A DNA stretch of 63,237 bases, the filler included, from Stramenopiles sp. TOSAG23-6 (taxonomy: Eukaryota), in assembly GCA_900128565.1 (NCBI GenBank). It is 34 parts of 34 records of this genome, joined end to end, with 100 filler letters (N's around TTAATTAATTAA, not from the genome) between each part and the next. Parts side by side here need not be neighbours in the genome. Positions count along the whole stretch, not along the records: positions 1,878 to 3,652 come from LT638608.1; positions 3,753 to 5,527 come from LT638609.1; positions 5,628 to 7,401 come from LT638610.1; positions 7,502 to 9,275 come from LT638611.1; positions 9,376 to 11,149 come from LT638612.1; positions 11,250 to 13,023 come from LT638613.1; positions 13,124 to 14,896 come from LT638614.1; positions 14,997 to 16,768 come from LT638615.1; 26 more parts are not named here. One strand, written 5' to 3'. The notes beneath the pieces are model-generated. The model did not search any database. It had not been told where the DNA came from and saw only the letters and a program-made list of their open reading frames with translations. The position numbers were made by a program, and so were the translations under genes. Shown here in pieces: positions 2,134 through 63,237 of this stretch; within the stretch, counting starts at the first letter, position 1, and each line of letters begins with the position of its first letter.

Positions 2134-3535
2134 GGAAGTCGCAAGAAAACAAGTTGATGATGAACGTTTTATTTTTTTTCAATTTCGAATTTATTTTTCA
2201 TAGTAAATTTTGTACCTAACAAATTTAAGTCTTTTTTTTTTGAAATATTTTTCCAAAATACATGGTGCACAAATTATTGATATCAATGTTGATGATGGTT
2301 TGATCGATGGGAAAAAAGCGATGAGTAAGTTTTTAAGACTAGCAATGACTGAACCCGATATATGTCGGGTTCCAATGATGATTGATTCCTCAAAATTTGA
2401 AATTATTGAAGAAGGACTAAAATGGGTTCAAGGAAAATGTTCGTTTTTAAAATTGAATGTACAATTTATATTTTTTTCATACGAAATTTTGTAACTAACG
2501 ATTTTTTTTTACCGGAAAAAAAAAATTCACAATATATCGATTGTGAATTCAATTTCTTTAAAAGTAGGATTAACAGAGTTCAAACGACAAGCTAAAATTG
2601 TAAAACGGCATGGTGCCGCTGTTATTGTGATGGCATTTGATGAAGATGGTCAAGCAGCTACGTATGCTGATAAAGTACGAATATGTAAACGATCGTATGA
2701 CATGTATGTTTTATTTTATTTTTTTTTNCNGNAAAAAAAAAANTCGAATATTTTTTTCATAGTAAATTTTGTACCTAACAAATTTTTTTAGAAAATTTTT
2801 GAAATATTTTTCCAAAATACATTCTTGTTGATCCTTTACAAGTGGGAATGGCACCAGAGGATATAATTTTCGATCCAAACATTTTAACGATTGCTACTGG
2901 ACTTCCTGAACATAATGGATATGTTTTATTTTTTTTTAATTTCGAATTTTTTTTTTCGTACGAAATTTCGTACCTAAACAAAAACGATTTTTTTTTAAAT
3001 ATTTTTTCACAATATAGGTATGCTGTTGACTTTATTCATGCGTGTAGAGAAATTAAACGAATATGTCCATTTTGTAAAATCAGTGGCGGAGTCTCAAATT
3101 TATCATTTGGATTTCGTGGAGTGAATGTTATTCGAGAAGCAATGCATTCAGTATTTTTATATCATGCCATTCAAGCTGGTATGGATATGGGTATGTACGT
3201 TTTCAATTTCGAATTTCAAATGTTTTTTTCATACGAAATTTTGTACCTAACAATTTTTTTTTGATTTTTTTTTTTTTCACAATACATTGTAAATGCTGGA
3301 ATGTTGGAAGTATATGAAGATATTGAACCGGAGCTGAGGTCTTTGGTTGAAAATGTCATCTTAAATCGTAACCAAGGCAATGACTTGACGAATGGTGGTG
3401 CTGCCACTGAAGCTTTACTTGCAAGAGCTGAGAAAGAACGCTTAATCGCCAATTCTTTGAAGAGTGGTAGTAGTGTACAGGTAGAAGTCGCGGCGTGGCG
3501 TTCGAAAACTATTGAGGAAAGATTGACACATTCAT
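2134..3535 (+). CDS. metH: Cobalamin-dependent methionine synthase, pterin-binding domain (partial, multi-exon)
   Basis: Spliced product [21 protein letters not shown]...[31 protein letters not shown]...[33 protein letters not shown]...[14 protein letters not shown]...AGMDMG/IVNAG. These are MetH motifs. Exons 2134-2161, 2264-2438, 2538-2703, 2823-2918, 3018-3194, 3288-3535. Confidence 0.95.
2162..2263 (+). other. Non-canonical intron (GA...AT variant) in metH
   Basis: GAT|gaacgtttt...tgtacctaac...ccaaaatacat|GGT restores [12 protein letters not shown]. Confidence 0.85.
2439..2537 (+). other. Non-canonical GT-AT intron in metH
   Basis: AAA T|gttcgtttt...cacaatatat|CG ATT GTG restores [12 protein letters not shown]. 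Confidence 0.85.
2704..2822 (+). other. Non-canonical GT-AT intron in metH
   Basis: GAC AT|gtatgtttt...ccaaaatacat|T CTT restores RSYD-I-LVD. Confidence 0.9.
2919..3017 (+). other. Family intron, probable AT...AG variant, 99 nt with no in-frame stop
   Basis: AAT GG|atatgtttt...cacaatatag|G TAT GCT restores EHN-G-YAVDF. The exact register is ambiguous. Confidence 0.7.
3195..3287 (+). other. Non-canonical GT-AT intron in metH
   Basis: GGT AT|gtacgtttt...cacaatacat|T GTA AAT restores the conserved GMDMG-I-VNAG. There is no AG dinucleotide in the insert. Confidence 0.92.
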
Positions 3536-3629
3536 GTATATTTTATTTTTTTTTCAAATTCGTTTTTTTTTCGTACGAAATTTTGTACCTAACGATTTTT
3601 TTTTTTTGAAATATTTTTCCAAAACACAT
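3536..3629 (+). other. GT-AT family intron
   Basis: CAT|gtatatttt...cgtacgaaattttgtacctaac...aaaacacat. The 23 nt downstream do not look like MetH (possible chimera). Confidence 0.7.
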
Positions 3630-3841
3630 GGATTGGGATGAAGACGGTCGAANNNNNNNNNNNNNNNNNNNNNNNNNNNNNNNNNNNNNNNNNNNNTTAA
3701 TTAATTAANNNNNNNNNNNNNNNNNNNNNNNNNNNNNNNNNNNNNNNNNNNNTNTGTNAAAAAAAAATAAATTCGAAATTTGTTAGGTACAAAATTTCGT
3801 ACGAAAAATAAATAAATTTGAAATTCATAATGAAAACGTTC

Positions 3842-5431
3842 TATCCTGTGCAGATGTAGGACCACGATACCAATTTAATGAGGTTATTGATCTTCTTAAT
3901 GTTGTACCATTGTATGAAGGTGGTGATGATTCAGTGTGATTCTCCAGTGTTTTTGGCTTTCTATTTTTATCTATTTTGGACGACAAAAATTCAAAAGCTA
4001 AATTTTTGACTAATGTTTCGAGTGTAGCACTTGATACTACTTTCCCTCTTGAGCCGAGTAGATGAAAAATATCTAATTCAAGTTTTTCCGTAGCCGACTT
4101 GATATTGTCTTCATTCTTTTCACCTGGCTTCATTATATTGATATTTGACTCAGTCTCTGGCCTTGGTATACTGTTGCATTGCAGAGAATTATTTACAGAA
4201 GACTGTACCTGTTGTGTTGAAAAAATATTTCAAAACACAAAAAAAATTGTTAGGACNAAANTTCGTACGNAAAAAAAAAATAAATTCGATTTTTTTGTTA
4301 AAAAAAAAAATAAAACATACCTGTAGACTTGGAAAACTGACCATATTCGGATTACAAACCATCTCAATATCTCCATCATCCGTCTTTGGTGCATGAAATG
4401 AAAAATTTAATGACACATCTTTAGAAAATTCAGAATGATTCTTCGATAAATTATTATTACTAGTATCTTTACCCTCTTTTTTTGAAATTGTCATTCTCTC
4501 ACACTGGAGGTCAACTAATGTATTTTGGAAAAATATTTCAAAAAAAATCTTAAAAGATTGTTAGGTACAAAATTTCGTATGAAAAAAATATATTTCAAAA
4601 AAAATCTTAAAAGATTGTTAGGTACAAAATTTTTATAAAAAAATAAATTAGAATTTGAAAAAAAATAAAACATACATGAACGCAACTCTTCAATAGGACT
4701 CTCGTGGCTCTGTTTGAAAGATGAATTGATTTCAGAGACTCTTTTATCTTCAATGTCTTTCAATATTTGTTTTGTGAGAACAATACCAATGGATTATGAA
4801 AAAATATTTCAAACATTAAAATCGTTAGGTACGAAATTTCGTATGAAAAAAAAAACTTAAATTAGAAATTCATATGAAACGTACATTCGTCTAACACTTT
4901 CTTCTATTTCAGTGCACCATTCAAGTACATCATTTCGCTGTCTTACATTTTGCGCTAGTATAAATATACGATCACCAACACCAAATACAAGACTGCGACC
5001 AGGGTTAATAAATTGTGAAAAATATTGTTTTTTTTTGTGGATAAAAAAAATCGTTAGGTACGACATTTTCATACAAAAAAAATAAATAAATTTGAAATTC
5101 ATGATGAAAACGTACATTAACATACTGCGGTAACGTGGACCTGTACCAAGATGATGAACATTCTGCCTTGTCAATCTCTGCCGTATTCTCATCGACCCAG
5201 ATGTTTTGTTTGATCTTTTAGTTTTAATCTCATGTCCCCTAATTTCGTGAAGTGATGTATTCTTCATATTTCGACGAATGCGAGGTGGAGAACCAGCAGC
5301 ACTACGAGAAAAACTTGGATTTATGTTCTTTGCATTTAAAAAACCAGTTGAACCAGCAGCACTACGAGAAAAACTAGTGATTGTGTTCTTCCTTTCTTTA
5401 AGAGGAATTCTTTCAGCAGAATCATGGGAAG
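3842..5431 (-). CDS. Unknown low-complexity protein, multi-exon fragment
   Basis: Minus-strand exons separated by family introns at 4209-4320 (GT-AG), 4518-4675, 4789-4884 and 5008-5115 (GT-AT), with partial copies at both contig ends. Confidence 0.6.
4209..4320 (-). other. Family intron with canonical GT-AG ends
   Basis: On the minus strand: CAG|gtatgtttt...cgtacgaa...cctaac...caacag|GT. Same body as the GT-AT copies, with AG at both boundaries. Confidence 0.75.
4518..4675 (-). other. GT-AT family intron with a tandemly duplicated core
   Basis: Two copies of aaattttgtacctaacaatcttttaagattttttttgaaatat about 57 nt apart. Confidence 0.8.
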
Positions 5432-5682
5432 ATGTATTATGAAAAAATATTTAAAAAAAAAAACTAAAATTTGTTAGGTACAAAATTACGTACGAAAAAA
5501 AATCGANTTTTTTGGTAAAAAAAAAAANNNNNNNNNNNNNNNNNNNNNNNNNNNNNNNNNNNNNNNNNNNNTTAATTAATTAANNNNNNNNNNNNNNNNN
5601 NNNNNNNNNNNNNNNNNNNNNNNNNNNTTTGTACCTAACAAATTTTAGTTTTTTTTTTTTGAAATATTTTTCCAAAATACAT

Positions 5683-7307
5683 GGCATCGATGGAAAATGG
5701 AACAATTGTTCAATTTTTGTCTCTCAAAAAAAAATGCAGTGGGTAACCAAGCTCGACATTGTTTATCACTAGTTCATTGGTTACATTGTACTGCTGATAA
5801 CGTTCGCAGTTATTGCCCTGAGGAATTACCCGAACTTGCCGAAGACTGCTGTGAACAAGCAGGAGTTTGGCTCCAACGCATTAGTGATACAATCGTTGCT
5901 GCTGCGGGATTTCTCACTCAAAAGGTTGCAAATATTGATTCCACTGGCTCTGCTTTATCATATGTTTTGGATAGAATGAATGATAAAGCACGCCCACCAC
6001 CAGGTACGGAAAGTCTTCCATGCAATCGCAAAGTTGTATTAGGAATGACAATGGCAGGACAGCATCTTTGTCAATTATGTTGGACTTTATCTTCCTCTGA
6101 AGCTGTTGTTGTATTTAATCAATTATTTTGTCCAAAATCGTTTTTGCATGCATCACTAAAAAAAGCTTTGCTTGAAGAGGTACGAGCTGCTGCACTAAAC
6201 AAACGAGATGAACCTCATCCATTATCACTTAGTGAAGATCTTCATCATTTTCTCATTGTTTTACAGGCATTTACGCATTATACTAGAATACCAGTGGGTA
6301 ATTTAATTAGGGAAGTCATGATGGAAGAAATGGATACCAGAAGCATATCTCATGTTGGAAATATTGGTCAACCTATTGTCCTTCCACAAGTTTCTAGTCC
6401 TACTTGTGTACGTTTGCAATTTCAAAGTTTTAATTTGTTTTTCGTACGAAATTTTGTACCTAATGATTTTTTTTTCGAAATATTTTTTCACAATACGTGG
6501 ACTTGCACCCACATCTTATATTGGATCTCTATGCTTATTTTTCCAGGCTACTGTGAATGAGCGATTACCCATGCGTGCGGATGCCGTAACTCAGCGAAAT
6601 GGAATTGTGCATTCTCCTTTTGCTGGTGGATATGTTCGATGGCAAAAACCAGATTGGAGACAACATTCTGTACACACATTTCCATTTTTGTGTCAACAAC
6701 AGTTTGAACCCATGTTGCGATTAATGGGACCTTTGGGGAAACGAACAGTTGATGTATGTTTTATTTTTTTTTTTTCAAATTCCAATTTTTTTTCGTACGA
6801 AATTTTGTACCTAACAAATTCTAGTTTTTTTTTTTGAAATATTTTTCCAAAATACATGCACTTCTCCTGAGTATTGCTGTGACTGGAGTTCAAAAATTAT
6901 GTCATGTTGTTATGCAAAATAGAGTTGTTTTACAGGCTTTACGAAAATCAGATGAAGATGGCACTGAACTTCTTTCATCGCTTCAAGGTGGGCGCCTCAT
7001 TGGTTTGAATGAATTTTCTCAAGTCGCAGTAAAAATAGGTCATGTAGGTTTTCATCTTTCATTTAATTTTTTTTTTTGGAAAAGTATGATATCTCACAAG
7101 TTTTATTTAAAAAAAAAAAAAAAAAAAAAAACATATATTTTTTCACAATACATTGTCTAACGATAAGAGAAATGTTGAGAAAAGCACAAGCTTCGATTGC
7201 TCATGAAGTGATGCCAGACATCCAACAATGGTCAGAAAATATGATTGGTCAAGCAAATGAGCCTCTAATGGGATTTGATCCTGCTTCATATTTAGTCGAA
7301 GAATTAT
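5683..7307 (+). CDS. NCKAP1: Nck-associated protein 1 / Hem / NAP1 (WAVE complex subunit), partial
   Basis: PGTESLPCNRKV..LCQLCWTL....VVVFNQLFCPKSFLHASL matches the Nckap1-family PGxES...F.P.EYL segment. Four family introns. Confidence 0.75.
6408..6498 (+). other. Family intron ending in GT (GT at both boundaries)
   Basis: ACT TGT|gtacgtttg...cacaatacgt|GGA CTT joins ORF 5697 to ORF 6352 in frame. Confidence 0.75.
6754..6857 (+). other. Near-consensus GT-AT intron
   Basis: GAT|gtatgttttattt...ttcgtacgaaattttgtacctaac...gaaatatttttccaaaatacat|GCA. Confidence 0.88.
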
Positions 7308-7595
7308 GTATGTTTTATTTTTTTTTTAACAAAAACATCGAATTTGTTTTTATAGTAAATTTTGTACCTAACAATTTTTTTTAGATTTTTTTTGAAATAT
7401 TNNNNNNNNNNNNNNNNNNNNNNNNNNNNNNNNNNNNNNNNNNNNTTAATTAATTAANNNNNNNNNNNNNNNNNNNNNNNNNNNNNNNNNNNNNNNNNNN
7501 NTTTTTTTTTTTTTTTTGTATGATTTTTTTTTCGTACGAAATTTTGTACCTAACAAATATTTTTTTTTTTTGTGAAATATTTTTCCAAAATTCAT

Positions 7596-9216
7596 GTATG
7601 CAAAAAAGGAGGCGGTCATGGAGGAACTTAATCAGGACAATCGTAAAGAAAAATGTGCTACATCATTTTATCGTCACAAAGTATTGACCAAATCTTTTGT
7701 ACGTTTATTTACAGCGACAAACATTCGCAATTCCATTGCTTTTCAGTTTCGCTTTTCGAAAGAATGTCATCGTGTGATTCAAGCTTGGAGAATTGAAACG
7801 AAGAAAATCGTACAGAGAAAGAAAGAGAGGAAAGTTGCAGATGTATACTTAAATAATACAAAATCATTATCTAGACCTCAACAACATCTTAAAAGGAACT
7901 CATACACTGCAGAATTTAAGAAACGTAAAAAAGACAAAATACGACAAAATATTGCAGAAGGACACGAAAAACGACGTCGTTTAATGGCTGAAACAGAAGT
8001 TAACTGGCGAAATCAAAATATACATGTAGAGAATAGAAATCAAAATATAGCTGTAGAGAATAGACGTGGATTGGCACTCCGAAGAAAAATGGTCAAATCT
8101 ATACGAAATGGAGAAACAAAAAAAGAAAAAAAACAGGTTGGAAATTCCTCACAGGCTTATGGAGAAACAAAAAATGAAAAAAAACAGGTTGGAAATCCCT
8201 CACAGGCTCATGTCGCAAATACTTTTAATGATGACCCCGAGCCCAGAAAAATTACACCACAGCCATATTCTACAAATAGTATAGAGAATATAGTATCTTC
8301 AAATCACAAGAATAATTCTACAAATAGTATAGAGAATATAGTATCTTCAAATCACAAGAATACTGATTTTGAAATTGAAAAGCTTGAAAAGAAAGTTTTG
8401 AATTTGGTTATGAAGCAATATAGCATTTCAAAGGATCAAGATGGTACAAATCAAGTATCAATATGTATGTTTTAATTTTTTTCAAATTTGTTTTTTTTTC
8501 GTACGCAATTTTGTACCTAACGATTTTTTTTTTGAAATATTTTTCTAAAATACATGTCGACGAGGGTTTTATTTATTATTACGAGATTGTGGTTTGTTAT
8601 GTGGTAATGAGGATAGAGCAAAACGACGAGGTGTTCGTTTTCATCATGAATTTCGATTTTTTTTTTCATAGAAATTTTTGTACCTAACAAAAAAATCAAA
8701 ATTTTCAAATATGTTTTCACAATACATGGTTTTGGTTTAAATTTATTAGACCTTTGTAGAATTTGGGAAGTATCATTTAGCCATGTAGATGAACCAGAAA
8801 CTCAAAAGCTTCGAAGGGCGCTTGCTGCGGTATGTAAAAATTTGAGCAGTAATAATCCTCAAAAATGTTTATCTCGAATGATAGTTGATTCGATTTTACC
8901 TGTTGTGTTTCATTCAAATGTATGTTTTATTTTTTTTCAAATTCGATTTTTTTTCATACGAAATTTCGTACCTAACGATTTTTTTTTGAAATATTTTTTC
9001 AAAATACATGATATTAATATCAATGAAACATACAAATCTATAACCGAATATAATGTGGACAGATTTATTCCAATCGGAAGTCTTAGTAGAAAAGTTACAC
9101 AACTTTTTTATGATTACCGTAAAATTATTCAAGATGCATTCAAACATTTGACAAATTCGGTAGTTCCACAAACTTCAAAAGTAAGAGACATTCGAAAAAT
9201 TATTCAAGTCGGTGAT
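7596..9216 (+). CDS. Unknown protein, multi-exon fragment
   Basis: Frame stays open after removing GT-AT introns 8465-8555, 8633-8727 and 8920-9009. Short internal tandem duplications. Confidence 0.65.
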
Positions 9217-9375
9217 GTACGTTTTATTTTTTTTTTTTGTATGAATTTTTTTTCGTACGAAATTTTGTACCTAACNNNNNNNNNNNNNNNNNNNNNNNNN
9301 NNNNNNNNNNNNNNNNNNNTTAATTAATTAANNNNNNNNNNNNNNNNNNNNNNNNNNNNNNNNNNNNNNNNNNNN

Positions 9376-35431: not shown

Positions 35432-35531
35432 NNNNNNNNNNNNNNNNNNNNNNNNNNNNNNNNNNNNNNNNNNNNTTAATTAATTAANNNNNNNNNNNNN
35501 NNNNNNNNNNNNNNNNNNNNNNNNNNNNNNN

Positions 35532-37959: not shown

Positions 37960-39150
37960 ACTGTTTATCTATAGAATGATTTTCGGACATTTTCTCTAGT
38001 GTCTCGATTTCTTGCAGTGCAACTAATTTTGCTATTTCTTGTTGTCGTCTATTTAATGTGAACGATATATATATATATATATTTGTTAGGTACAAAATTT
38101 CGTATAAAAAAAAAAATAAAAAAAAATAAAAATAAAAAAAATAACTTATCTTTCTCAATTTTTGTAACTCTTTTTTCTGTAACGCTGACAAACATCTCTT
38201 CATTGGATTAGGGTTAGGGTTCTTCATTGGGTTTGGGCTACTTTGTGTACTATCCTGTAGACCATGTATTTTGGAAAAATATTTCAAAAAAAAATTTTAA
38301 AATTTGTTAGGTACGAAATTTCGTACGAAAAAAAAAATCGAATTTGAAAAAAAATAAAACATACATGTATATCATTCTGTTCTTTGTGTTGATTCATTTC
38401 ATCAGAATTATCTTTTGTATTGGAATGATAAATACTTGACTCAATTGTTCCATGATGTTTGCTAATCGAATGCACTCCTGTAACATTACTTTCTTTAGTG
38501 TTATGTTCAATATTATGTAAAGCTTTGTTGATTTTATGAACTTCTGCCTCAACGGCATGTTCAATATTATGTTCAATATTATGTATTTCATTCATAGCTT
38601 TATGAGCTTCTGCTGCAACAGCATGTTCAATATTTTGTAAGTCATTCTTAAGTTTATGAGCTTCTGCTCCAACGGCATGTTTAATATTATGTTCAATATT
38701 ATTTAACTCATTATTGATTTTATGTGCTTCTGCTCCAACAGCATGTTCAATATTATGTTCAGTATTATGTATTTCATTCTTAAGTTTATGAGCTTCTGCT
38801 CCAACAGCATGTTCAATATTATGTAACTCATTCTTAGCTTTATGAGCTTCTGCTGCAATGGCATGTTCAATATTGTGTTCAATATTATGTATTTCATTCT
38901 TAAGTTTATGAGCTTCTGCTCCAACGGCATGTTCAATATTATGTAACTCATTCTTAGCTTTATGAGCTTCTGCTCCAACCGCATGTTCAATATTATGTTC
39001 AGTATTATGTATTTCATTCTTAAGTTTATGAGCTTCTGCTCCAACAGCATGTTCAATATTATGTAACTCATTCTTAGCTTTATGAGCTTCTGCTGCAATG
39101 GCATGTTCAATATTGTGTTCAATATTATGTATTTCATTCTTAAGTTTATG
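37960..39150 (-). CDS. His-rich tandem-repeat protein, partial
   Basis: Alternating 18/22-aa units such as LRNEIHNIEHNIEHAIAAEAHK / AKNELHNIEHAVGAEAHK. GT-AT intron at 38264-38364. The 3' boundary is approximate. Confidence 0.65.
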
Positions 39151-39250: not shown

Positions 39251-41009
39251 AAAACATATAGACACTTGCTCCGTTCCATGAGTGATTTGCATTGCTGGAT
39301 GTTTCATCTTTTTCAGAGGTACCAAGGAATTATACTCCGGCCATTCCCGACGTAAAAATTGTGTAAAGGAAAAATGACTTGTTTTATCGTAATGTTGTTT
39401 TGTATTTGTTGCATTTACACTGTTTACAGAATGTACAATGGCTATTTCTTTCACATAATTTTGAATATCTCCTGAACGACGCTCATATACGCCACCATTA
39501 TTTGAAATCACATTACTTTTACCAACAATTAATGGTGTTTCACCAATAGAACGGAGAAAAGACGTTTTATCTTTCCAAGCTTCAAACACAGGCCATGTAA
39601 GTACACTCTGACTAGCTTTGAGTATCACAGGAAGTTTTTTATAGTACTTTTTCATAAACAACTTTCTTCCTTTTTTGTTTGATGAAATTTTAGGTATATT
39701 ACATGTTTTAAGATCATAATCATCGATTAACTTATCCATCTCACGACTGGGTAAATGCCACTCTGTCGATCGACAAAGAAGAGGGTTCGTTGAAACCGTT
39801 AGTTCTCCTCTTTTACACTCATCCGAAGCAATTGAAATGTCATTTTCCTTTCTTTTTCTATATTTCTTTGATTTTTTCTTAATTTTTTTCTTTGTAGATT
39901 TTCTGTGTGCTTTGTTATTGTTGTTACTCTTGCTAAATTTTTCTCCAACTGAAATGCTTGACTTGAAAAGCTCATCAAAGAATTCAAGAATTTCGAGCCG
40001 AATTGTTCTGATTTTGTCACCCATAAGTTCTTGTAAGCATTTTGTATTTTCTGAAAGATATTTTTTTATTTTTTTTTTCATTTTCCGATTTTTTTTCATT
40101 GTGAATTTCGTACCTAATTTTTTAACATTGAGTTGCTTATCTACACTGGCTGAATCCAAGATTACGCTGGCTCTATCAGAACACTTTGTAAATGTAACAG
40201 ATGCCAGTTGATACATATATTGTGAAAAATATTTTTTTTTGGTTTCAAAAAATTGTTAGGTACAAACTTTTGTATGAAAAAAATTTAGGTAAAAAATTCA
40301 TGATGAAAATGTACAAATGTGCTGATGCCAAATTTAATATGTGTTTTAGTGTATCTTCCTCTACAGGAACTTGATTTATTCCATCAAGAAAATAACGTGG
40401 CTTGAAAAAAAATTGGTATCTGAGATGGTGGTGCTACAGCTGCAGGGTAAAACGGCATTCTACTTTTTTTTATTTCTTCAAGAATGTTTTGTGAAAAATA
40501 TTTTGTTTTTTTTTTGGTAAAAAAAATTCGTTATGTATGAAATTTCTACGAAAAATAAATGTAAGGTAAAAAATCCAATTTTGAAAATGTACATGTTGTA
40601 CCGTAAACTTTCCATTACATAGCTTAGATTTAGATGTACTGCGGCAATAATATTAGACATTTTTTTAATTGTTTGTGACTTTGAACAAACTGCTTCTATA
40701 CCATCCTTTGCCAGTAAATTAGTAAATCCTTCATGGATCAATTTCATATTAAAAGTTTTAAATGTTGATGGAAATCTCACTTCATCAATTTTGAAAGACT
40801 TTTTTAAAGTGTCAAGTTTTTCTTCTATAGTGCCTTCAATTAAAGAAGGTATCCTACGAAATCCCTTAAATTTTAAAACTCCTGGATCATATTGACCTAA
40901 AGAGATGACATCTCCAAGATTCATAGTTGCATGANGCCTGCCTNGAGGTACGTACATAGTCTCTCCTTTCTGTAATATACATGAGGCTATCATACCTTTA
41001 TCTCGGGCT
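39251..41009 (-). CDS. JmjC-domain protein, partial
   Basis: CILQKGETMYVP.G..HATMNL and FMKKYYKKLPVILK...W....W. GT-AT introns at 40215-40314 and 40484-40592. Confidence 0.65.
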
Positions 41010-42968: not shown

Positions 42969-44545
42969 TGACAATTTTCAAAATGTTGACAATTTTCAAA
43001 ATGTTGACAATTTTCAAAATGTTCAACATGTAAAAAGAAAGAGAGATGTACCATCTGTGTTGGGATATGATAATATCACTCTTGCTGCTTTATTTAATGC
43101 TCCTCCATTTGATCAGGATTTACCTTGGAAGATGGAAATTGAATTTATGAAAAAAAATATTCAAGGTCCAACAAAAAACAGTTCTGTTCCAATTTTTCCA
43201 TGTCCTAAAAATTGTACAACGTCAACAAAATGTACAAAAATTGTTGATTTACGAAATAATTTTATATTTAAAAAAATATTTCAACTTTTTAATACTTATG
43301 TTGTTGGCCAAGATGAGAATGGTGAACAAAAAATTAAAACTTTAATTCGAAATGCATTAAAAAACAAAACTGTTCAGCCTAACCCTAACCCTAACCCTAA
43401 CCCTAACCCTAGTGGAGATCAAAAAACATTGGACAACATCAAAGATACACGAAATTTGTTAGGTACGAAACTTCCTATGAAAAATGTTGATACTATTTTT
43501 GAAAATTTGTTAGGTACGAAATTTCCTATGAAAAATGTTGAAAATATCTTTACATCACAATTTTCAGTAAATACTGATTTTGTTGTATTTAATGGAAATC
43601 ATCCATTTTCACCAAATACATTTTTACGTGTTACAATTTCCAAAATTGTTTGTTTTCATCATTGCATTTTATTTTTTATTTTCTATATTTTTTTATTTTT
43701 ATTTTTTACACGAAAAAATACAAAAAAATACAAAAAAATCCAATTTTTTTTTTTTTTTTTTTTTTTTCAAAAAACTAAATATTTTTTGTTTTTTAAATAT
43801 TTTTTTACAAAACATGAATTCAACGGACTTGACCAATTTACTCAATTTAATCCACTTCATGTGTTACAGTCCAAATCACCAAGTGAGTTTTATTATAGTA
43901 CAGGAGCAAGTTATACTCTGCAAAGTGAATTTGCTATGGATTATATGTACGTTTTATTTTTTTTCAATTTTTTTTTTTGGTTTCATACGAAATTTTGTAC
44001 CTAACAATTTTTTTTCAATTTTAATTTTTGTGAAATATTTTTTCAATTTTAATTTTTTTTTTTTTTTTTTTTTATAGTAAATTTTGTACCTAACAATTTT
44101 AAAATTTTTTTTTTTGAAATATTTTTCCAAAATACATTGGTGTACGTCTTACCCTCTCCATTGATTCCAATGATGATATACATAACCAAAATAACCCAAA
44201 AACACGAATTATTCGATTAAGTACAAAAGTACGAAATTTAAGTACAAAATTATCGATGCTTCTTGCACTTAATCAAGATAAAATTTTAAATTCACAAATT
44301 GGAGCATTTGTACAACATCCTGTTGCTTGTGGTGGCCATATTTTATCAGCATTTGAAATATCTGAATTTATTGTGAATACAACTTCAATTGATAAATTCG
44401 AAATTGAACACGAAAAAGGTGATTTTATTGGAGATGGTTTGCATACACTATTATCTATCGTTCAGCTTGTTTCAGACAGTTTTGTACAATCCAATTTGTC
44501 TGTGTTATCAAATTTTTATGTTGCTCCTTTACTTACGGAGTATAT
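42969..44545 (+). CDS. Unknown protein, multi-exon fragment
   Basis: Frame is continuous over GT-AT introns 43648-43815 and 43947-44137. Confidence 0.6.
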
Positions 44546-44896
44546 GTATGTTATAAAAAAAAAAAAAAAAAAAAAAAATTGGTACAAAATTTCATACCTA
44601 AAAAAAAAAAAAAAAAATTTTTAAAAAAAAATTTTTTTTTTTTTTTTTTTTAACCAAAAAAAAAAAAAAAAAAAAAAAAAAACCCAATTTTTTTTTTTTT
44701 TTTTTTTTTTTCAAAAAACTAAATANNNNNNNNNNNNNNNNNNNNNNNNNNNNNNNNNNNNNNNNNNNNTTAATTAATTAANNNNNNNNNNNNNNNNNNN
44801 NNNNNNNNNNNNNNNNNNNNNNNNNTTTTTTTTCGTACGAAATTTTGTACCTAACAAATTTAATTTTTTTTTTTCAAATATTTTTCCAAAATACAT

Positions 44897-46705: not shown

Positions 46706-46742
<37 letters not shown>

Positions 46743-46769
46743 ATTTTTTGTTTTTGAAAATATTGTTTC

Positions 46770-47784
46770 ATAGTATATGGATTGTACCAACGGGACATCA
46801 ATTAAAATCTTTGGTTCAAAAATCACGAAATCACCGAATATTTCAACGTAAACAAAAACAAGAAAAGGATGAAAAAAATATAATGAAAAAAGAAAACACG
46901 AAAAATCTTCAATTTTCAATGAATTTTATTCAAGGTTTAGATGTTCCAACAGAAACAATACAAATGAAAAAATCAGTTCATCATTCTTCATTGTTATCAA
47001 ACAATATACAAAATATAAAAAAAACAAAAAATATACAAAATATACAAAATACAAAAAATACAAAAAATACAAAAAATATACAAAATAACCCTAACCCTAC
47101 ACTTGACGAGACTATGACAATCCCAAGGCCATTATGTAGAAAAGATTTTTATGATGAATTTAATAAAATGAATAATCTAGGGTTAGGGTTTGAAAAATAT
47201 AGAGGAACTGCAAAATTACCAGGTTTACCAATTAGTCAAATTGATCAAAATAGACATAACCATTCAATTACTGCTTGGTGTAATACAACAACTAATAATG
47301 ATGATAATAATAATGATGATAATGATAATAATTATACAACAACAACTAATAATGATGATAATGATGATAATGATACTACTACTACTAGTACTACTACTAC
47401 TACTATTAATAATAATAATAATAATAATACAACTACTACTACTACTACTAATAATAATAATAATAATAATAAGGCTTTGAGTAGTTTGAGTAGTAAAGAA
47501 CTATGCAATGATGACAAAATTCAATCTACAAATACTACTACTATTGATGATATTGATAATAATAATAATACTATTGATAAAAATAATATTGATAATTATA
47601 ATATTGATAATACTACTACTAATAATAATGATAATAATAATAATGATAATAATAATAATACTAAAGTTATAAAAAACACAATGAAAAATAATAAGAATAT
47701 AACAGAAATAATGACTCATGAAAGCGATGTTTCAGTCATTTCATCGATTCAATACACTGATGATGATTCGCTGTACGTTATTCT

Positions 47785-47816
<32 letters not shown>

Positions 47817-48303
47817 CGTACGAAATTCTATACCTAACAATTTTTATCAAAAAAAAACATTTCATACGAAATTCTATACCTAACAATTATTTTTTTTTAC
47901 TATTTCATGTTCTACATGGGGAAAGAAAACGAAAAACAATAAAAATTAGTGGAGCCACTGATAAAAAAATGTTACAAAATATAAAGAAATGGGAAAAAGA
48001 GCATGAAAAACAATTTATGTATTTTTTCATTTTTAAAAATTTAAAAAAAAAAAAAAAAATTTATTTTTAAAATTTTTAAATTTTTTAAAATTTTTTTTTA
48101 AATTTGAATTTTTTCTCAATTAGAGTTAGGATTAACAAAAAATTATGAATTTTTTTAAATATATTTATACAATACAGGAAATGGCAACAAATTGATAACT
48201 CTATAAAAAATCCAAGTCTACAAAATTCGACAATGACAAATCATTCAAATATATCAAATAGAACAGAACAATCACAATTTTATAATAGAAATGAAAGTGA
48301 AAA
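46770..48303 (+). CDS. Low-complexity Asn/Thr/Asp-rich unknown protein, partial
   Basis: Long ORF with AAT/ACT/GAT microsatellites. Family introns at ~47773-47917 and 48019-48177 (GT-AG). Confidence 0.5.
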
Positions 48304-48536
48304 AGTACGTTTTTTTTTTTGAAATTTTTTTGAAATTTTTTTTTCGTACGAAATTTTTTTTTTTCAAAAAATTTTGTACCTAACACTTTTTTTTTTTTTT
48401 TAAATTCTTTACAAAACAGTCTATCGTAAGTACAACNNNNNNNNNNNNNNNNNNNNNNNNNNNNNNNNNNNNNNNNNNNNTTAATTAATTAANNNNNNNN
48501 NNNNNNNNNNNNNNNNNNNNNNNNNNNNNNNNNNNN

Positions 48537-49670: not shown

Positions 49671-50390
49671 TCCTTCGTAAAGAGTAAAAAAAGAGACACT
49701 AAGAGAAAGAGAGACACTAATTGTTGTTGGTTGACTTGAGTCACTTGACAAGCGAAGTTGACCACCTGCAACAACAGGTATTTCGTGTTTTTATCAAAAC
49801 ACGAAATATACCTGTGGTTGCAGGTGAAGTTGACAGGTCTCGATCGAATAATTATAATAATATATATCCAATCAATTCAATTTCGATGGCTGATGGCCAC
49901 GAAATATTTAGCGCAAACCTGGTAGCGGCTAACTAAGCTAACCCTAATTATATTTCGTCATCGCCAAAGTGAAAGTATTGAATAGATATTGCATAGAAAT
50001 TTAAAAACAAACAAAATTTCTTTTTATATAATAAATATAACAAATACTAATCATCCTTTTTCTCAAGTTCTGCTTTCAATTCTAGATATTCTTCTTTTTT
50101 ACTTCCTTTATTTTTATGTTCTTCATCTTTTGTAAAAAAAACGCGATCTTCATTTAATTTCTTTCCTGTTTTTCGTTTTGAACATTCACTCCATACATGT
50201 ATTATGAGAAAATATTTCAAAAAAAAATCGTTAGGTACGAAATTTCGTATGAAAAAAAAATTTAAATTAGAAATTCATATAAAACATACANNNNNNNNNN
50301 NNNNNNNNNNNNNNNNNNNNNNNNNNNNNNNNNNTTAATTAATTAANNNNNNNNNNNNNNNNNNNNNNNNNNNNNNNNNNNNNNNNNNNN

Positions 50391-51309
50391 ATTAGAAGAA
50401 TCACCAATAATAAGAACAACGAAAAAGAAAATTATTCTATCACCAGTCCACCGTCCTCTCCAAGAAATACGTCAATCGTCGTTTAATTCTTCCGACATGT
50501 CATTTCACGATGATGGTTCTCCATATAAAACACCAGGTATTATCCGTTCTTTACCACCTCGAACCCCTTTGACAAATTATAATAAAACTCCCCGGACGAC
50601 AGCGTCTAAACGAGCAGTAAAGAGTGCAAAAAAAACAAATCGAACTTTCCGCAAGAATCGGTCCAACTTGGTCAAATCTCTTTTGATTGAATACAATGAA
50701 AATGTTTTTGATTTGCAAATTCCTGAGGATTTATCAATTACCTGGAACACGCGTTTATTAACTACAGCAGGGTATACATACAACAAGAAGGAGAGAGCGT
50801 CAGGATTTCGTGTGTCTCGCATAGAATTAGCTGATAAAGTTGTCGATACTGAACAAAAACTGAGGGAAACTTTACTACATGAATTATGTCACGTTGCTGC
50901 TTGGTTAGTTGATAGTTGCAATCGTCAGTGTTGTCCTCCTCATGGTAAACATTTTAAAGATTGGTGTCGCAAGGGTAAAGAGAAATATCCTCATTATGGA
51001 AACTTTGACAAATGTCATAATTATGCTGTTTTTAAAAAATTCAGATATGAGTGTCAAGGTTGTTTTATTACTTTTGGTAGGCATTCAAAAAGTATAAATA
51101 TTGACCAAAAAGTATGTGGTAATTGCAAAGGACCAATAAAATTATTAGGTGCTTTTAATAGAGATGGAACACCGATGAAGTCTAGAACTCCAAATAAGTT
51201 TGCGTTGTTTGTAAAGAGTAATTTTTCTTCGGTAAAGAAAACAAATCCACACCTGAAACATGGTGATATAATGCGTGAATTATCATCTATGTATAAAAAT
51301 GAAAAATAA
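50391..51309 (+). CDS. GCNA/ACRC-like SprT metalloprotease with zinc ribbon and HMG-like tail
   Basis: WNTRLLTTAG, TLLHELCHVAAW, HGKHFKDW, YECQGC...CGNC and NKFALFVKSNF. Confidence 0.9.
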
Positions 51310-51323
51310 ATGCGTAGATTGAC

Positions 51324-51364
<41 letters not shown>

Positions 51365-51387
51365 CAATAATATCAGTTACATTACAT

Positions 51388-52084
51388 TTATTGCAGTGAA
51401 TGATTTGGACATTTCCCAGGGCCAAAATGGTCAATAGGTTTTCGGACTCTCTGACGACAAATAAAACAAAACCCAGTTCGACACTGATGACATCGAATAT
51501 AATTGTTGCCATTCGGACGTTCATTGAAAGCGCCACATGATAAGCATCGCGCCAGATCATATCTTTGTACTCTTTCAACAAATTCTCCTACTTCAACATC
51601 TTCATTTATACCGTCTTGATATTCATTGTCAAAGCCTCTGTTCCATAGATCAATTTCTTCTTGATCAAATAAAACGCAAGTATTTGATTCATCACGAAAA
51701 TGTGCATATCCAATACTTGAAATATCTTCATTACATATGGAGAAAAGAAAAATATTTTACATTTGAAATTCATTAGGGTACGAAACGTTTTGATTTGGTA
51801 TATTAAAAATAAATTCGAGATTCAATTTTGAAAACGTACATGAAACAGAATTTGCATTCACATTGTATACAAGTCATTTTGTTACACCCATGATTTTTTT
51901 CAATGAATATTCTACACCGTGGACAACTTTTAAAATCTGACGATCGTATAGCTTCAAGAGTTTGTATTTCGTGTTTTAAATCATTTTGCATTTTTGACAT
52001 TTTATCACTTATTGTTGAACTTGAGATTCTTTTTTTTAAACCGCTTATTCTAGACTCCATATTCACACAGGGTGTTCCAGGATG
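51388..52084 (-). CDS. RBR E3 ubiquitin ligase (RNF14-like), 3' part
   Basis: CPRCRIFIEKNHGCNKMTCIQCECKFCF/ICNEDISSIGYAHF joined across GT-AT intron 51737-51839, then a second Cys cluster CLSC...CHQC..FCFIC...HFGPGKC. Confidence 0.88.
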
Positions 52085-52242
52085 ATGTATTTTGGAAAAA
52101 TATTTCAAAAAAAAAAACTNAAATTTNTTNGGTACAAANTTTNNNNNNNNNNNNNNNNNNNNNNNNNNNNNNNNNNNNNNNNNNNNTTAATTAATTAANN
52201 NNNNNNNNNNNNNNNNNNNNNNNNNNNNNNNNNNNNNNNNNN

Positions 52243-53175
52243 ATTAGAAGAATCACCAATAATAAGAACAACGAAAAAGAAAATTATTCTATCACCAGTC
52301 CACCGTCCTCTCCAAGAAATACGTCAATCGTCGTTTAATTCTTCCGACATGTCATTTCACGATGATGGTTCTCCATATAAAACACCAGGTATTATCCGTT
52401 CTTTACCACCTCGAACCCCTTTGACAAATTATAATAAAACTCCCCGGACGACAGCGTCTAAACGAGCAGTAAAGAGTGCAAAAAAAACAAATCGAACTTT
52501 CCGCAAGAATCGGTCCAACTTGGTCAAATCTCTTTTGATTGAATACAATGAAAATGTTTTTGATTTGCAAATTCCTGAGGATTTATCAATTACCTGGAAC
52601 ACGCGTTTATTAACTACAGCAGGGTATACATACAACAAGAAGGAGAGAGCGTCAGGATTTCGTGTGTCTCGCATAGAATTAGCTGATAAAGTTGTCGATA
52701 CTGAACAAAAACTGAGGGAAACTTTACTACATGAATTATGTCACGTTGCTGCTTGGTTAGTTGATAGTTGCAATCGTCAGTGTTGTCCTCCTCATGGTAA
52801 ACATTTTAAAGATTGGTGTCGCAAGGGTAAAGAGAAATATCCTCATTATGGAAACTTTGACAAATGTCATAATTATGCTGTTTTTAAAAAATTCAGATAT
52901 GAGTGTCAAGGTTGTTTTATTACTTTTGGTAGGCATTCAAAAAGTATAAATATTGACCAAAAAGTATGTGGTAATTGCAAAGGACCAATAAAATTATTAG
53001 GTGCTTTTAATAGAGATGGAACACCGATGAAGTCTAGAACTCCAAATAAGTTTGCGTTGTTTGTAAAGAGTAATTTTTCTTCGGTAAAGAAAACAAATCC
53101 ACACCTGAAACATGGTGATATAATGCGTGAATTATCATCTATGTATAAAAATGAAAAATAAATGCGTAGATTGAC

Positions 53176-53216
<41 letters not shown>

Positions 53217-53994
53217 CAATAATATCAGTTACATTACATTTATTGCAGTGAATGATTTGGACATTTCCCAGGGCCAAAATGGTCAATAGGTTTTCGGACT
53301 CTCTGACGACAAATAAAACAAAACCCAGTTCGACACTGATGACATCGAATATAATTGTTGCCATTCGGACGTTCATTGAAAGCGCCACATGATAAGCATC
53401 GCGCCAGATCATATCTTTGTACTCTTTCAACAAATTCTCCTACTTCAACATCTTCATTTATACCGTCTTGATATTCATTGTCAAAGCCTCTGTTCCATAG
53501 ATCAATTTCTTCTTGATCAAATAAAACGCAAGTATTTGATTCATCACGAAAATGTGCATATCCAATACTTGAAATATCTTCATTACATATGGAGAAAAGA
53601 AAAATATTTTACATTTGAAATTCATTAGGGTACGAAACGTTTTGATTTGGTATATTAAAAATAAATTCGAGATTCAATTTTGAAAACGTACATGAAACAG
53701 AATTTGCATTCACATTGTATACAAGTCATTTTGTTACACCCATGATTTTTTTCAATGAATATTCTACACCGTGGACAACTTTTAAAATCTGACGATCGTA
53801 TAGCTTCAAGAGTTTGTATTTCGTGTTTTAAATCATTTTGCATTTTTGACATTTTATCACTTATTGTTGAACTTGAGATTCTTTTTTTTAAACCGCTTAT
53901 TCTAGACTCCATATTCACACAGGGTGTTCCAGGATGATGTATTTTGGAAAAATATTTCAAAAAAAAAAACTCAAATTTGTTAGGTACAAAATTT
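52243..53994 (+). repeat. Redundant duplicate of contig 50391-52142
   Basis: Same start and same ORFs at offset 1852. Visible differences are only at N positions. Confidence 0.95.
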
Positions 53995-57411: not shown

Positions 57412-58358
57412 GACTGAGTAACACTCGATGTTGTTGCTGAACTTCCATAATCTCATTATAATACATAATACTTATATACTGTAATAAATAGCTTAATCAC
57501 ATGTACAAGCATTCTTAGTGAATAACTTTGCTTTCACGAGATATTAGGAATATTATCAAATAAAAAATAGTTTTTAAAACAAAGTCTTTTTTCTTACGTT
57601 AAACCCTAACCCTAAAAATTTCTTATGAAAAACACATCTTTTCAATTTATTGATTTAAAATAATTTTCTATCTGATGTTTAAACAAAAGCAANNNNNNNN
57701 NNNNNNNNNNNNNNNNNNNNNNNNNNNNNNNNNNNNTTAATTAATTAANNNNNNNNNNNNNNNNNNNNNNNNNNNNNNNNNNNNNNNNNNNNTGCACGTG
57801 GGAACATCTGTTTGGCAATATCACCAATACACATGCTTATTTTCATACATATGAACAAGCACTTAAATGACAAGACANGTCTATAATCTGAAACTAGTGC
57901 ANTTTNAAAAGTCAATAAAAATACTCGAATATGTCCGGAAATGACTCAAAAATTTACACACGGCTTACANACNGCTTACTGATAGTATCACAAGTGAATA
58001 TATATTGGTACAATCACATGGAATGAATTTGAAGTGTTAATTCTAATGGGTAATATCAAGAATACTTAAAAATAGGTCTTTGCGATGTCCTTTTCATGTC
58101 TTTCTTCGTTTGACCGAAGAGCAAAAAAAAACAAAATTGAGGTCGTTTTTTTGACGACAGACCTGCGACAAAAAACATAATAATTTGAGAAATTCGGAGA
58201 CTTTCGGTTTTTCTGGTTTTTCTACGTCTGTACTAAATTGGTACACATTGGATGAAACCATTTTTTTTTTCCGTTTCTTGTTTTTGTTTGTAAAGTAGCC
58301 GATAATAACCAGTAACTAAAGATTACGACGTATAAGATAATTTCTTTCTGCAATAAAG

Positions 58359-59463: not shown

Positions 59464-59641
59464 GTATGTTTTATTTTTCTTTCAATTTCGAATTTTTTTT
59501 TCGTACGAAATTTTGTACCTAACGATTTNTTTTTGAAATATNNNNNNNNNNNNNNNNNNNNNNNNNNNNNNNNNNNNNNNNNNNNTTAATTAATTAANNN
59601 NNNNNNNNNNNNNNNNNNNNNNNNNNNNNNNNNNNNNNNNN

Positions 59642-61172: not shown

Positions 61173-61846
61173 CTTACAAATAGTGAATGATAAATAGAAT
61201 AAAACAAAGACGTACATTGATACAAAAGTCATTTCAAGTTAATCTATATATTTTATTTGCAATAAATCAATACATGTACTTTATACTTTATAATTGTTCC
61301 ATCATTTAAATCTTTTTATAACACTATTTGTCTATTTGTTACATCATTTAGTGACTTTAACATGGATGTTTTTTTTTTTTTGTTTTTTGNNNNNNNNNNN
61401 NNNNNNNNNNNNNNNNNNNNNNNNNNNNNNNNNTTAATTAATTAANNNNNNNNNNNNNNNNNNNNNNNNNNNNNNNNNNNNNNNNNNNNGTACGAAATTT
61501 TGTACCTAACAAATTTTAGTTTTTTTTTTTGAAATATTTTTCCATAATACATCCTTCTAAATTGAAAGGTGATAGTGACAATGAACTTTCGAGAACAACT
61601 GTGTTAGAAAAACTTGGTATATGAAAGATTATTATGGAGTATACTATAGACAGTCCACTATAGACCTCAGTATTATTTGATGGATTTAGGATTGTTTCAT
61701 ATATCCAGAAAATTTGGTTAGAGTTACTTATAAGCTATAGACAAGTAAATTTGTATAAAGTTGATTTCATATAATGAAAATAGACTATAGCATTATATAC
61801 GATGATTATTTTGCTTTTATTGTTTTTATTTGTACATACTTCACAC

Positions 61847-62620: not shown

Positions 62621-62746
62621 TGAAATTGTTTGAATTCAATATGCTATTCAACTGAAGTAGTAGCTCGAATGACAAAAAAGTTATACAAGTATATTTATTT
62701 AAGGTTGTTGTTGTTGTTGCTCTCGAGAAGGTTTGACTTGCGCTCG

Positions 62747-62761
62747 AAACCCTAACCCTAG
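62747..62761. promoter_or_regulatory. Telo-box-like motif AAACCCTAACCCTAG
   Basis: About 130 nt upstream of the SRPRB ATG. Confidence 0.5.
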
Positions 62762-62822
62762 CGCTAGAGAAAGAAATTTCATGAATGTTCACATCAACAA
62801 TATCGTAAAACACATTTTTTAT

Positions 62823-63183
62823 TCAAATTTGAATTGCCCCAAGATCTTCGTCAACTCTATCAATATCATTCAATTCATTCGTCGATGTTTTATTTACCCT
62901 ACTAGTACTGGAAATTTTACAACATTTTTTAAATTTTTTACCTGAGCCACAGTGACAAGGTCTATTACGCGAATACTTTTTTTTCTTTTTTGATGACACG
63001 GATTTAGGATTATTCGAATTTTTGCTTGGGTTATTATTATCATTATTAATACACTTTTTATCAATATGGAACGGCATACTTATATCTGTTGTACCATTCT
63101 GACTTCTAATACTATCATAGTGGCAATTTCCTGTGTACGCCAAATGAATATATTTCTGACTTTCCACAGCTTTACTATTACTC
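62823..63183 (-). CDS. OTU-domain/SEC-C motif protein, last exon
   Basis: IHLAYTGNCHYDSIR (OTU His motif) and RNRPCHCGSGKKFKKCC (SEC-C). Preceded by an intron 3' end (...ccaaaatacat). Confidence 0.85.
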
Positions 63184-63237
63184 ATGTATTTTGGAAAAAT
63201 ATTTCAAAAAAAAAAACTAAAATTTGTTAGGTACAAA

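Follow-up and report, generated by a model that had tools for sequence, protein, structure and literature searches.

Introners are intron-generating transposons that have been described in Micromonas, Aureococcus, dinoflagellates, Chrysochromulina and other organisms, and, as far as the cited accounts describe their procedure, the catalogues of these elements drew on annotated GY-AG introns, families with unfamiliar ends being dropped unless they were supported by RNA (Gozashti et al. 2022, PMC9860276; 2025, PMC12130899). In Fritillaria borealis, introns derived from miniature inverted-repeat transposable elements (MITEs) are reported with terminal inverted repeats (TIRs) and target-site duplications (TSDs), their acceptor being taken from duplicated exonic bases (PMC11282704, section 6); AG-AC and AG-AT are given there as the commonest borders, with removal by a U2-type spliceosome (PMC11282704, PMC13326754). 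The same section describes, for Amoebophrya, that over half of all introns are non-canonical and repeated, with TIRs, variable TSDs of 3-5 nt and diverse borders (PMC11282704, section 6), and the nonconventional introns of euglenids and hemistasiid diplonemids are portrayed, in the parts of the sources used here, as having neither a U1-complementary donor nor conserved borders (PMC12621601, PMC6221363). The present work concerns a family of short repeated inserts in the genes of Stramenopiles sp. TOSAG23-6 (GCA_900128565.1), analysed in a stretch of 63,237 bases, hereafter the window. We are inclined, somewhat beyond an even chance, to read these inserts as a high-copy, non-autonomous, MITE-like introner family with a GT..AT register in a marine stramenopile-like protist. 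Our literature search brought up no account of an intron set dominated by GT-AT, nor of any introners in this lineage, in agreement with the original prediction made from this DNA, which knew of no described GT-AT-dominated system; the main texts on such single-cell genomes, to which the search extended, do not discuss splice sites.

The core of the repeat, CGAAATTTYGTACCTAAC, has 69 matches in the window when up to three mismatches are allowed, against 0.25 expected, and a profile built from seven copies (nhmmer) gave 62 hits in the 59.8 kb of non-N sequence, about one per kb. Curation of the profile hits, together with a search for donor-like starts, yielded 42 complete inserts of 86-210 nt (median 111) and about 19 further copies cut by contig ends, close to the approximately 45 complete and 25 truncated copies estimated in the original prediction, whose consensus also agrees with that of 20 aligned copies, GTATGTTTTATTTTTTTTTCAATTTCGA.TTTTTTTTTCGTACGAAATTTTGTACCTAACAAATTTT.....TTTTTTTTGAAATATTTTTCCAAAATACAT. 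Longer copies contain internal tandem duplications, and the start of a second type, subfamily B, is GTACGTTTTCATCATGAATTTC. The first two bases are GT in 40 inserts, GA in one and AT in one; the commonest start hexamers are GTATGT (17), GTACGT (12) and GTAGGT (4), and GTAYGT is present in 29/42. A CTAAC-like box occurs in 40/42 inserts with its A located 32-49 nt (median 41) from the insert end, the branch-like box reading GTACCTAAC and the conserved tail at the insert end GAAATATTTTTCCAAAATAC. GTAYGT is a U2-type donor signal and CTAAC a U2-type branch signal. The termini are inverted (GTAT..ATAC) and the centre is a short palindrome; RNAalifold returned no consensus structure or terminal helix (-0.1 kcal/mol), and the fold of a single copy was weak (z -1.68), the termini AUGUAU and AUACAU being paired in that fold.

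The methionine synthase (MetH) gene, on the contig 1878-3652, carries six of the complete inserts, all on the plus strand, and was compared with five true homologues, P0002-P0006. Junctions are written here as 5' flank/insert start..insert end/next base, and a copy is called discordant when flank and end differ with AT on one side. Removal of the insert restored exact colinearity with the homologues at five of the six junctions. Insert 1 (2162-2263, 102 nt, AT/GAACGT..ACAT/G) lies where the homologues are colinear across, ..ARKQVDD being joined to GAQIIDIN where they have ..ARKQVED GAMV.., and insert 3 (2704-2822, 119 nt, AT/GTATGT..ACAT/T, open reading frame (ORF) of 69 codons) separates two abutting high-scoring segment pairs; both of these junctions are colinear with P0003-P0006. 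Insert 2 (2439-2537, AT/GTTCGT..ATAT/C), insert 4 (2919-3017, GG/ATATGT..ATAG/G, in which flank and end differ) and insert 5 (3195-3287, AT/GTACGT..ACAT/T) are 99, 99 and 93 nt long and correspond exactly to tblastn gaps of 33, 33 and 31 codons. At insert 6 (3536-3629, 94 nt) removal did not restore colinearity. An additional, diverged copy, outside the 42, was observed upstream of insert 1 at 2019-2133 (+), with a GTACAT start after GT and an end ..CAAAACAG right before the exon encoding ..EVARKQVDD. The best database match to a MetH exon, P0001, is a 254-residue 'assembled CDS' (coding sequence) that models the locus at window 2321-3582; it runs into three inserts and omits segments common to all five homologues (e.g., IVNSISLK..). 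This public model is mis-spliced, because it was modelled with GT-AG pseudo-introns only. Protein searches for further public models or transcript-derived proteins found none, the length range of one of these searches having left out full-length relatives.

A second locus, the glutathione reductase gene on the minus strand of the contig 28082-29845, was measured with chain 1onf_A as ruler, and its three junctions were all exact, one GT..AG and two GT..AT. Exon 1 runs to residue 411, the split codon is 412 and exon 2 covers 413-452; an 18-codon exon exactly fills 453-470, and the last exon begins at Met471. Insert 1 (29412-29621, 210 nt, AG/GTATGT..ATAG/T) is canonical, insert 2 (29102-29289, 188 nt, AT/GTAATT..ACAT/G) is diverged, and insert 3 (28945-29045) has a 5' end corrupted by N calls. 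The latter had been considered as proof of an end in ..AC, its assembled TTTTNTN lacking AT, and was discarded as such, since this string is better read as a corrupted ATGTATG: at 29041-29047 (-) there is T at each T position of ATGTATG and T or N at each A or G, which fits an ATGTATG overwritten by poly-T reads, a base-call corruption at repeats. As for the motif restoration announced in the original prediction, it therefore stands for glutathione reductase (3/3) and for five of the six MetH junctions, MetH insert 6 being the part that did not hold.

Reading frames were examined at the 38 junctions that have at least 25 codons on both sides, a junction passing when it is in frame for at least 25 codons on each side; inserts 3536-3629, 13149-13253, 20641-20742 and 48305-48419 had too little flanking sequence and are not counted here. 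After excision, 34/38 junctions were open in frame on the strand of the insert, compared with 9/38 and 15/38 when one or two extra bases were removed and 10/38 on the opposite strand. The 34 validated inserts fall in the three phases as 13, 9 and 12. Sense orientation and the use of all three phases, both proposed in the original prediction, are thus borne out, and of the host genes that it had named, photolyase/cryptochrome, TMTC, ePHD and GPR180/TMEM145 are recovered by Pfam. The location of inserts on both strands of the window is trivial, because the 34 unrelated contigs lie in arbitrary orientation. Judged from coding capacity and homology, the view that the inserts behave as introns is supported, since they lie on the sense strand, occupy all phases and, once removed exactly, leave conserved proteins intact.

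Under the GT register, the last two bases of the 42 inserts are AT in 35, AG in 4, TT in 2 and GT in 1, in keeping with earlier counts of about 38, 5, 2 and 1, and the base preceding this final pair is C or T in 40/42; therefore, YAT is a fair description of the end. A canonical terminal AG is found in 4/42 inserts, and U2-type donor and branch boxes are present. The two bases before GT are AT in 28 copies, TT in 5, AG in 3, GT in 3 and GG, CT and AA in one each. This 5' flank pair is identical to the last pair of the insert in 31/42 copies (AT 27, AG 2, GT 1, TT 1); among the ends other than AT, four of seven match their own flank (permutation p 0.0009), and for GT and TT ends alone two of three do so (p 0.027). 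Together with the inverted termini GTAT..ATAC, the repeat of flank and end looks like a 2-bp target-site duplication, a cut-and-paste-like signature. The original prediction had recognized intron-like inserts that mostly lack a terminal G under the GT register, and this part stands, but it missed both their transposon-like character and the ambiguity of the register. An AG located 10-17 nt past the branch-like A is skipped in 9/40 copies, including the homology-verified MetH inserts 1 and 3, and another two have one situated 4 or 7 nt ahead of their AT end, which brings the total with a skipped AG to 11/40. For 32896-33020 (+, 125 nt, AT/GTATGT..ATAT/G), which has a bypassed AAG 4 nt ahead of its end, 150 codons are open with the AT end, compared with 8 with the frame from the upstream AG, and for the discordant 28465-28573 (+, 109 nt, TT/GTAGGT..ACAT/G), in which the bypassed AG lies 7 nt before the end, the figures are 31 codons with the AT end and 6 with the AG frame. 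As read from these frames, acceptor choice is not a matter of the 'first AG'.

Parts of 1878-11149 occur in twelve public runs. Three of these are small DNA runs from a single organism, which contain approximately half the words and may be the source; the others are metagenomes and metatranscriptomes of seawater or plankton. Their contigs were compared with 2744-3652 only, the depths not being copy numbers and the listed joints being repeat cross-matches. The insert parts of this segment attract 5,968 contigs of the DNA metagenome X4, whose record 3 (306 nt, 2 differences) spans 3282-3563 and consists of the exon 3288-3535, preceded by the final 6 bases of one insert and followed by 28 bases from the start of the next; independent seawater DNA therefore has the same arrangement of exon and inserts. 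Among the RNA contigs, almost all of those placed on the segment match inserts, one is exon only, and record 26 of X9, a contig of 2,367 nt, matches 3154-3194 and continues for 30 letters, 25 of them identical to the window starting at 3288. By its sequence, this contig reads as the MetH mRNA of a relative, continuous exactly at the position of insert 5.

The boundaries of the inserts deserve closer weighing. AT stands on both sides in 27/42 copies, so GT..AT, TG..CA and AT..AC give one same mRNA, and since the product is the same in the three registers, protein homology and ordinary RNA-seq cannot separate them at these 27 copies. If the boundaries lay two bases to the left, the inserts would be U2-type AT-AC introns with the same mRNA, in which the first A and last C mimic the G-G pair, an arrangement that we consider unlikely. 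To the identical product in the 27 copies it adds an AC preceding the final pair in 29/42 and, according to section 30 of PMC13326754, the isostery of the A-C pair with G-G and its usability by the U2-type spliceosome. However, it would place cleavage two bases upstream of a near-perfect GTAYGT, its AC is kept in only 29/42, and the AT of its would-be intronic 5' flank (28/42) is less kept than the pair that would be exonic (35/42). The nine discordant copies also point in the wrong direction for it, AT being at the 3' pair only in eight and the reverse in one (sign test p 0.039); this 8:1 bias is expected under GT..AT because the 3' pair would be an intronic signal and the 5' pair coding sequence. 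At MetH insert 4, the retained upstream pair GG gives Gly, as GT..AT requires, and the retained downstream pair AG gives Arg, as AT..AC requires; the 106 homologues with the motif have N (96), S (4), G (2), D (2), A (1) and T (1) at this position, thus Gly in 2/106 and Arg in 0/106. For GT..AT there is also the fact that GT is the best-kept pair (40/42), at the head of the U2-type donor box, and that the first base after the insert end is G in 27/42. These four indirect arguments make GT..AT moderately preferable to AT..AC.

A removal like that of euglenid and diplonemid nonconventional introns, with paired intron ends and flanking direct repeats and no usual reading of splice sites, is quite improbable in our view. 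It agrees with the direct 2-bp repeats at the borders, with the variation of the end pair (AT, AG, TT, GT) and with the pairing of the inverted termini AUGUAU/AUACAU in the single-sequence fold, but that fold is weak (z -1.68), RNAalifold gives no terminal helix (-0.1 kcal/mol), and the strong GTAYGT with CTAAC at a fixed distance is lacking in such introns as the consulted descriptions present them (PMC6221363; PMC11282704, section 6). The slightest probability is given to excision at the DNA level in the manner of ciliate internal eliminated sequences, or to no removal at all, the genes being dead or the contigs artefacts. Internal eliminated sequences of ciliates are short, AT-rich segments with a 2-bp boundary repeat of which one copy is kept, and they are removed from somatic DNA independently of orientation. 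Points in favour are the 2-bp repeat at the boundaries, one copy of which stays behind, the presence of insert sequence in RNA libraries, and a poor assembly of single-cell type with chimeric and duplicated contigs; DNA excision, however, does not need the sense-strand bias (34/38 versus 10/38), donor and branch boxes are present, and the nearest protein label is stramenopile, not ciliate. An independent metagenome contig has the inserts at identical exon edges, and the element is found in thousands of contigs from four seawater runs. Host genes have kept long ORFs and conserved residues and are therefore not decaying pseudogenes. Several observations weigh against the introner reading with a GT..AT register itself. 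Formally, the 27 AT/AT copies allow no decision on the register, and the arguments for GT..AT are indirect and weak (a sign test at p 0.039; one residue). Chemical grounds favour AT..AC, because G-G and A-C are isosteric terminal pairs, and a first G with a last U is not among such pairs in section 30 of PMC13326754. Removal of MetH insert 6 leaves about 10 residues of all homologues missing and colinearity unrestored; this insert is probably two copies collapsed in assembly around a micro-exon, and a 26-nt stretch between two copies in a contig of one run is comparable to the suspected micro-exon. Four of the 38 junctions fail the ORF test (28279-28391, 30883-30968, 47773-47917 and 29102-29289), the last of them only through its 18-codon exon, its junction being verified by the 1onf_A ruler. 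The assembly is poor, with N calls, one contig present in duplicate and another that is palindromic, and neither an empty site nor an autonomous element nor a transposase was found in the 34 contigs of the window. On 2744-3652 no contig of spliced RNA of this organism bridges a junction, the exons being thinly covered or not covered, and the element is plentiful in the RNA libraries X6, X8 and X9 (polyA and other, seawater), with 1138, 1022 and 16 contigs; one polyA-library contig holds a 26-nt stretch between two unspliced copies. This element RNA could be pre-mRNA, retention, excised introns or DNA carry-over.

For the introner family with a GT..AT register, we propose that the element brings its own GTAYGT 5' splice site, its branch-like box and its conserved tail, that it would insert in the sense strand of genes flanked by a 2-bp target duplication, mostly AT, and that the cell would free the pre-mRNA of the element and of a single copy of the duplicated pair. 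The intron would then have GT at its start and the duplicated pair at its end, with YAT as acceptor in 35/42 and YAG in 4/42. We infer that removal takes place at the RNA level by the spliceosome, in the GT..AT register, and that the elements moved as DNA transposons; a relaxed or altered spliceosome can reasonably be inferred. A broader statement, to which we give slightly less than even credence, is that in an abundant lineage of marine stramenopiles the main 3' splice site is YAU and not YAG, and that GT-AT introns born from transposons number in the thousands there, their acceptor being supplied by a 2-bp target duplication and chosen by position past upstream AGs. If this is true, the second catalytic step must have become independent of a terminal G, and the target duplications left by transposons can determine which splice code a genome follows. 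Confirmed by RNA, the lineage would offer a natural system in which most introns combine canonical donor and branch signals with a non-G acceptor, and a second, independent and simpler test bed beside Fritillaria for site selection in the second step. Gene finders restricted to GT-AG mis-model these genes, P0001 being an example, which probably lowers the quality of the proteomes, of completeness scores and of functional inferences in this uncultured and abundant marine group.

The remaining complete inserts are distributed over many contigs, and are given here with ORF values in codons. Four lie on the minus strand between 4209 and 5115: 4209-4320 (112 nt, AG/GTATGT..ACAG/G, ORF 80), 4518-4675 (158 nt, AT/GTATGT..ACAT/T), which has an internal tandem duplication, 4789-4884 (96 nt, AT/GTACGT..CCAT/T, ORF 91) and 5008-5115 (108 nt, AT/GTACGT..TTAT/T, ORF 50). 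For the last of these, an alternative upstream donor had been considered and became unneeded after a one-base correction of the 3' end. On the plus strand follow 6408-6498 (91 nt, GT/GTACGT..ACGT/G, ORF 112), where flank and end are both GT, 6754-6857 (104 nt, AT/GTATGT..ACAT/G, ORF 100) and the diverged 7044-7153 (110 nt, AT/GTAGGT..ACAT/T, ORF 73), and then 8465-8555 (91 nt, AT/GTATGT..ACAT/G, ORF 38), the discordant 8633-8727 (95 nt, GT/GTTCGT..ACAT/G, ORF 28) and 8920-9009 (90 nt, AT/GTATGT..ACAT/G, ORF 88). Minus-strand copies were located at 9741-9886 (146 nt, AG/GTATGT..ATAT/G, discordant, ORF 121) and, in the ePHD gene, at 10528-10723, a long one (196 nt, AT/GTATGT..ACAT/G, ORF 141). 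Subfamily B is represented by 12215-12306 (+, 92 nt, AT/GTACGT..ATAT/A, ORF 150) and by the discordant 40215-40314 (-, 100 nt, TT/GTACAT..ATAT/G, ORF 39). At 13149-13253 (-, 105 nt, AT/GTATGT..AAAT/G) the contig end is too near for the ORF test, and 14297-14426 (-, 130 nt, AT/GTAGGT..ATTT/G, ORF 56) is discordant with AT at its 5' and TT at its 3' side. The TMTC gene contains 15610-15757 (+, 148 nt, AT/GTACGT..ACAT/T, ORF 149), the photolyase/cryptochrome gene contains 22068-22177 (+, 110 nt, AT/GTATGT..ACAT/G, ORF 58), and 20641-20742 (+, 102 nt, AT/GTACGT..ACAT/G) has only 10 codons upstream.

Further along the window, 26896-27032 (+, 137 nt, AT/GTATTT..ATAT/G, ORF 149) is followed by 27631-27757 (+, 127 nt, TT/GTATGT..ACTT/G, ORF 74), with TT as both flank and end, and by 28279-28391 (+, 113 nt, AT/GTATGT..ACAT/G), which fails the ORF test with 6 codons and has 65 when shifted by +2. 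Five minus-strand inserts occur between 30199 and 31431, namely 30199-30310 (112 nt, AT/GTATGT..ACAT/G, ORF 54), 30383-30566 (184 nt, GT/GTAGGT..ACAT/A, discordant, ORF 100), 30883-30968 in the TMEM145-like gene (86 nt, ORF test failed), 31109-31222 (114 nt, TT/GTATGT..AAAT/A, discordant, ORF 64) and 31304-31431 (128 nt, AT/GTACGT..ACAT/G, ORF 91). Then come 38264-38364 (-, 101 nt, AT/GTATGT..ACAT/G, ORF 150), the discordant 43648-43815 (+, 168 nt, TT/GTTTGT..ACAT/G, ORF 62), 43947-44137 (+, 191 nt, AT/GTACGT..ACAT/T, ORF 149) with an internal duplication, 47773-47917 (+, 145 nt, CT/GTACGT..ACAT/G), which fails the ORF test, and 48305-48419 (+, 115 nt, AA/GTACGT..ACAG/T) at a contig end. At 43442-43536 (-), two tandem antisense core fragments were observed inside a plus-strand ORF and are translated in frame as a repeated NLLGTK(L/F)PMKNV peptide; this is apparently an exonised antisense piece of the element.

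Many contigs start or stop within a copy of the repeat, which therefore breaks the assembly. Copies cut in this way and reduced to their 3' part end in ACAT at 5432-5515 (-), 5628-5682 (+), 18740-18794 (+), 28082-28135 (+), 44825-44896 (+), 61489-61552 (+) and 63184-63236 (-), and also at 52085-52142 (-) and 53937-53994 (-) on the duplicate contigs; those at 7522-7595 (+) and 26216-26272 (+) end in TCAT and ACTC, respectively. The 5' part remains at 7308-7401 (+), 9217-9275 (+), 22291-22378 (+) and 59464-59541 (+), with AT/GTATGT, AT/GTACGT, TG/GTATGT and AT/GTATGT. A further copy, 3765-3823 (-), lies at a contig end, and 50197-50289 (-) has lost its 5' flank at a contig end and ends in ACAT. 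The window is composed of 34 contigs of about 1.75-1.85 kb each, ordered by length and joined by 33 linkers of the form N44-TTAATTAATTAA-N44, with 3,421 N in total and 59.8 kb of non-N sequence. The contig 50362-52142 is the duplicate of 52214-53994, and the contig 35503-37291 is palindromic, its ORFs 35576-36379 (+) and 36444-37247 (-) being identical, which is typical of a multiple-displacement amplification chimera.

Telomere-like short units, ACCCTAACCCTA (12 nt, sometimes in longer runs), were also observed inside ORFs on either strand, where they are translated as PNPN or LGLG; they are found at 9426-11100, 16132-16149, 20324-20335, 38207-38218, 43378-43407, 47090, 47187, 56985, 57605 and 62751, with one inverted pair around a 15-nt spacer at 10993-11027. 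The string CCTAACCCTAAC has 16 matches in the window with at most one mismatch, against 0.11 expected. These units may be a second type of small insertion, or telomerase-healed breaks. Searches of the window against Rfam at the gathering threshold and for transfer RNAs gave no match. In metagenome_contigs, the 23-mer pattern scan gave no match and the 17-mer scan gave 64 loci, none of them matched by the family profile; pattern scans of viral_contigs gave 6 and 0 loci, the 6 not having been compared with the profile. With respect to the lineage, the source label of P0001 contains MAST3, which suggests a MAST-3-type stramenopile. The ORF list includes Sel1-MYND and ankyrin repeat proteins, a content that we take to resemble that of MAST-3-type stramenopiles. 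An origin from marine diplonemids, a lead from the literature, was dropped in view of the MAST-3-type stramenopile label of the nearest protein.

The inserts can thus be placed beside the described systems. In the alternative register they read AT..AC, as AT-AC introns do, whether of the U12 type or of the rare U2 type. U12-type introns are marked by a conserved 5' box and by a branch box at a short distance from the 3' end. Unlike U12-type AT-AC introns, however, the consensus start (AT)GTATGTTTTA lacks a U12-type 5' box, and the branch-like A, at 32-49 nt (median 41) from the end, is further away than the short distance typical of U12-type introns. The nonconventional introns of euglenids and hemistasiids, as characterized in the sections cited above, share with the present inserts the non-GT-AG borders, the short direct repeats, the pairing potential of the ends and a suspected MITE origin, whereas donor and branch boxes are strong here and terminal pairing is weak; neither the lack of a U1-complementary donor nor a stable end helix was found in this family. 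With introners the likeness is broader. Many near-identical copies are present (62 nhmmer hits; 69 core matches versus 0.25), they are predicted to be excised as whole sense-strand introns of unrelated genes (8 exact junctions; 34/38 versus 10/38), and they show transposon signatures (flank equal to end in 31/42; inverted GTAT..ATAC). On the available descriptions, near-identical short elements forming whole introns at unrelated gene positions, TSDs, short inverted termini and an aquatic host are features of introners as well, and in Chrysochromulina, too, the element supplies one splice site and the duplication provides the other; unlike the introners so described, the acceptor recruited here is AT and not AG, and the duplication has 2 bp compared with the 3-9 bp quoted. 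Fritillaria, in the cited parts, shares the apparent MITE origin, the acceptor from duplicated exonic bases and AT 3' ends, but it has a non-canonical 5' end and very diverse ends, whereas here GT is the start in 40/42 and AT the end in 35/42; moreover, Fritillaria is a tunicate and the present host a protist. Amoebophrya, as described in the cited section, resembles the present family in having non-canonical, repeated inserts with duplication and inverted termini, and differs in that here the duplication is of 2 nt and one border type is dominant. Relative to the transposon-born non-canonical introns of Fritillaria and Amoebophrya, the novelty of the family of inserts described here is best seen as the combination of a canonical donor with a YAT acceptor derived from a 2-bp duplication.

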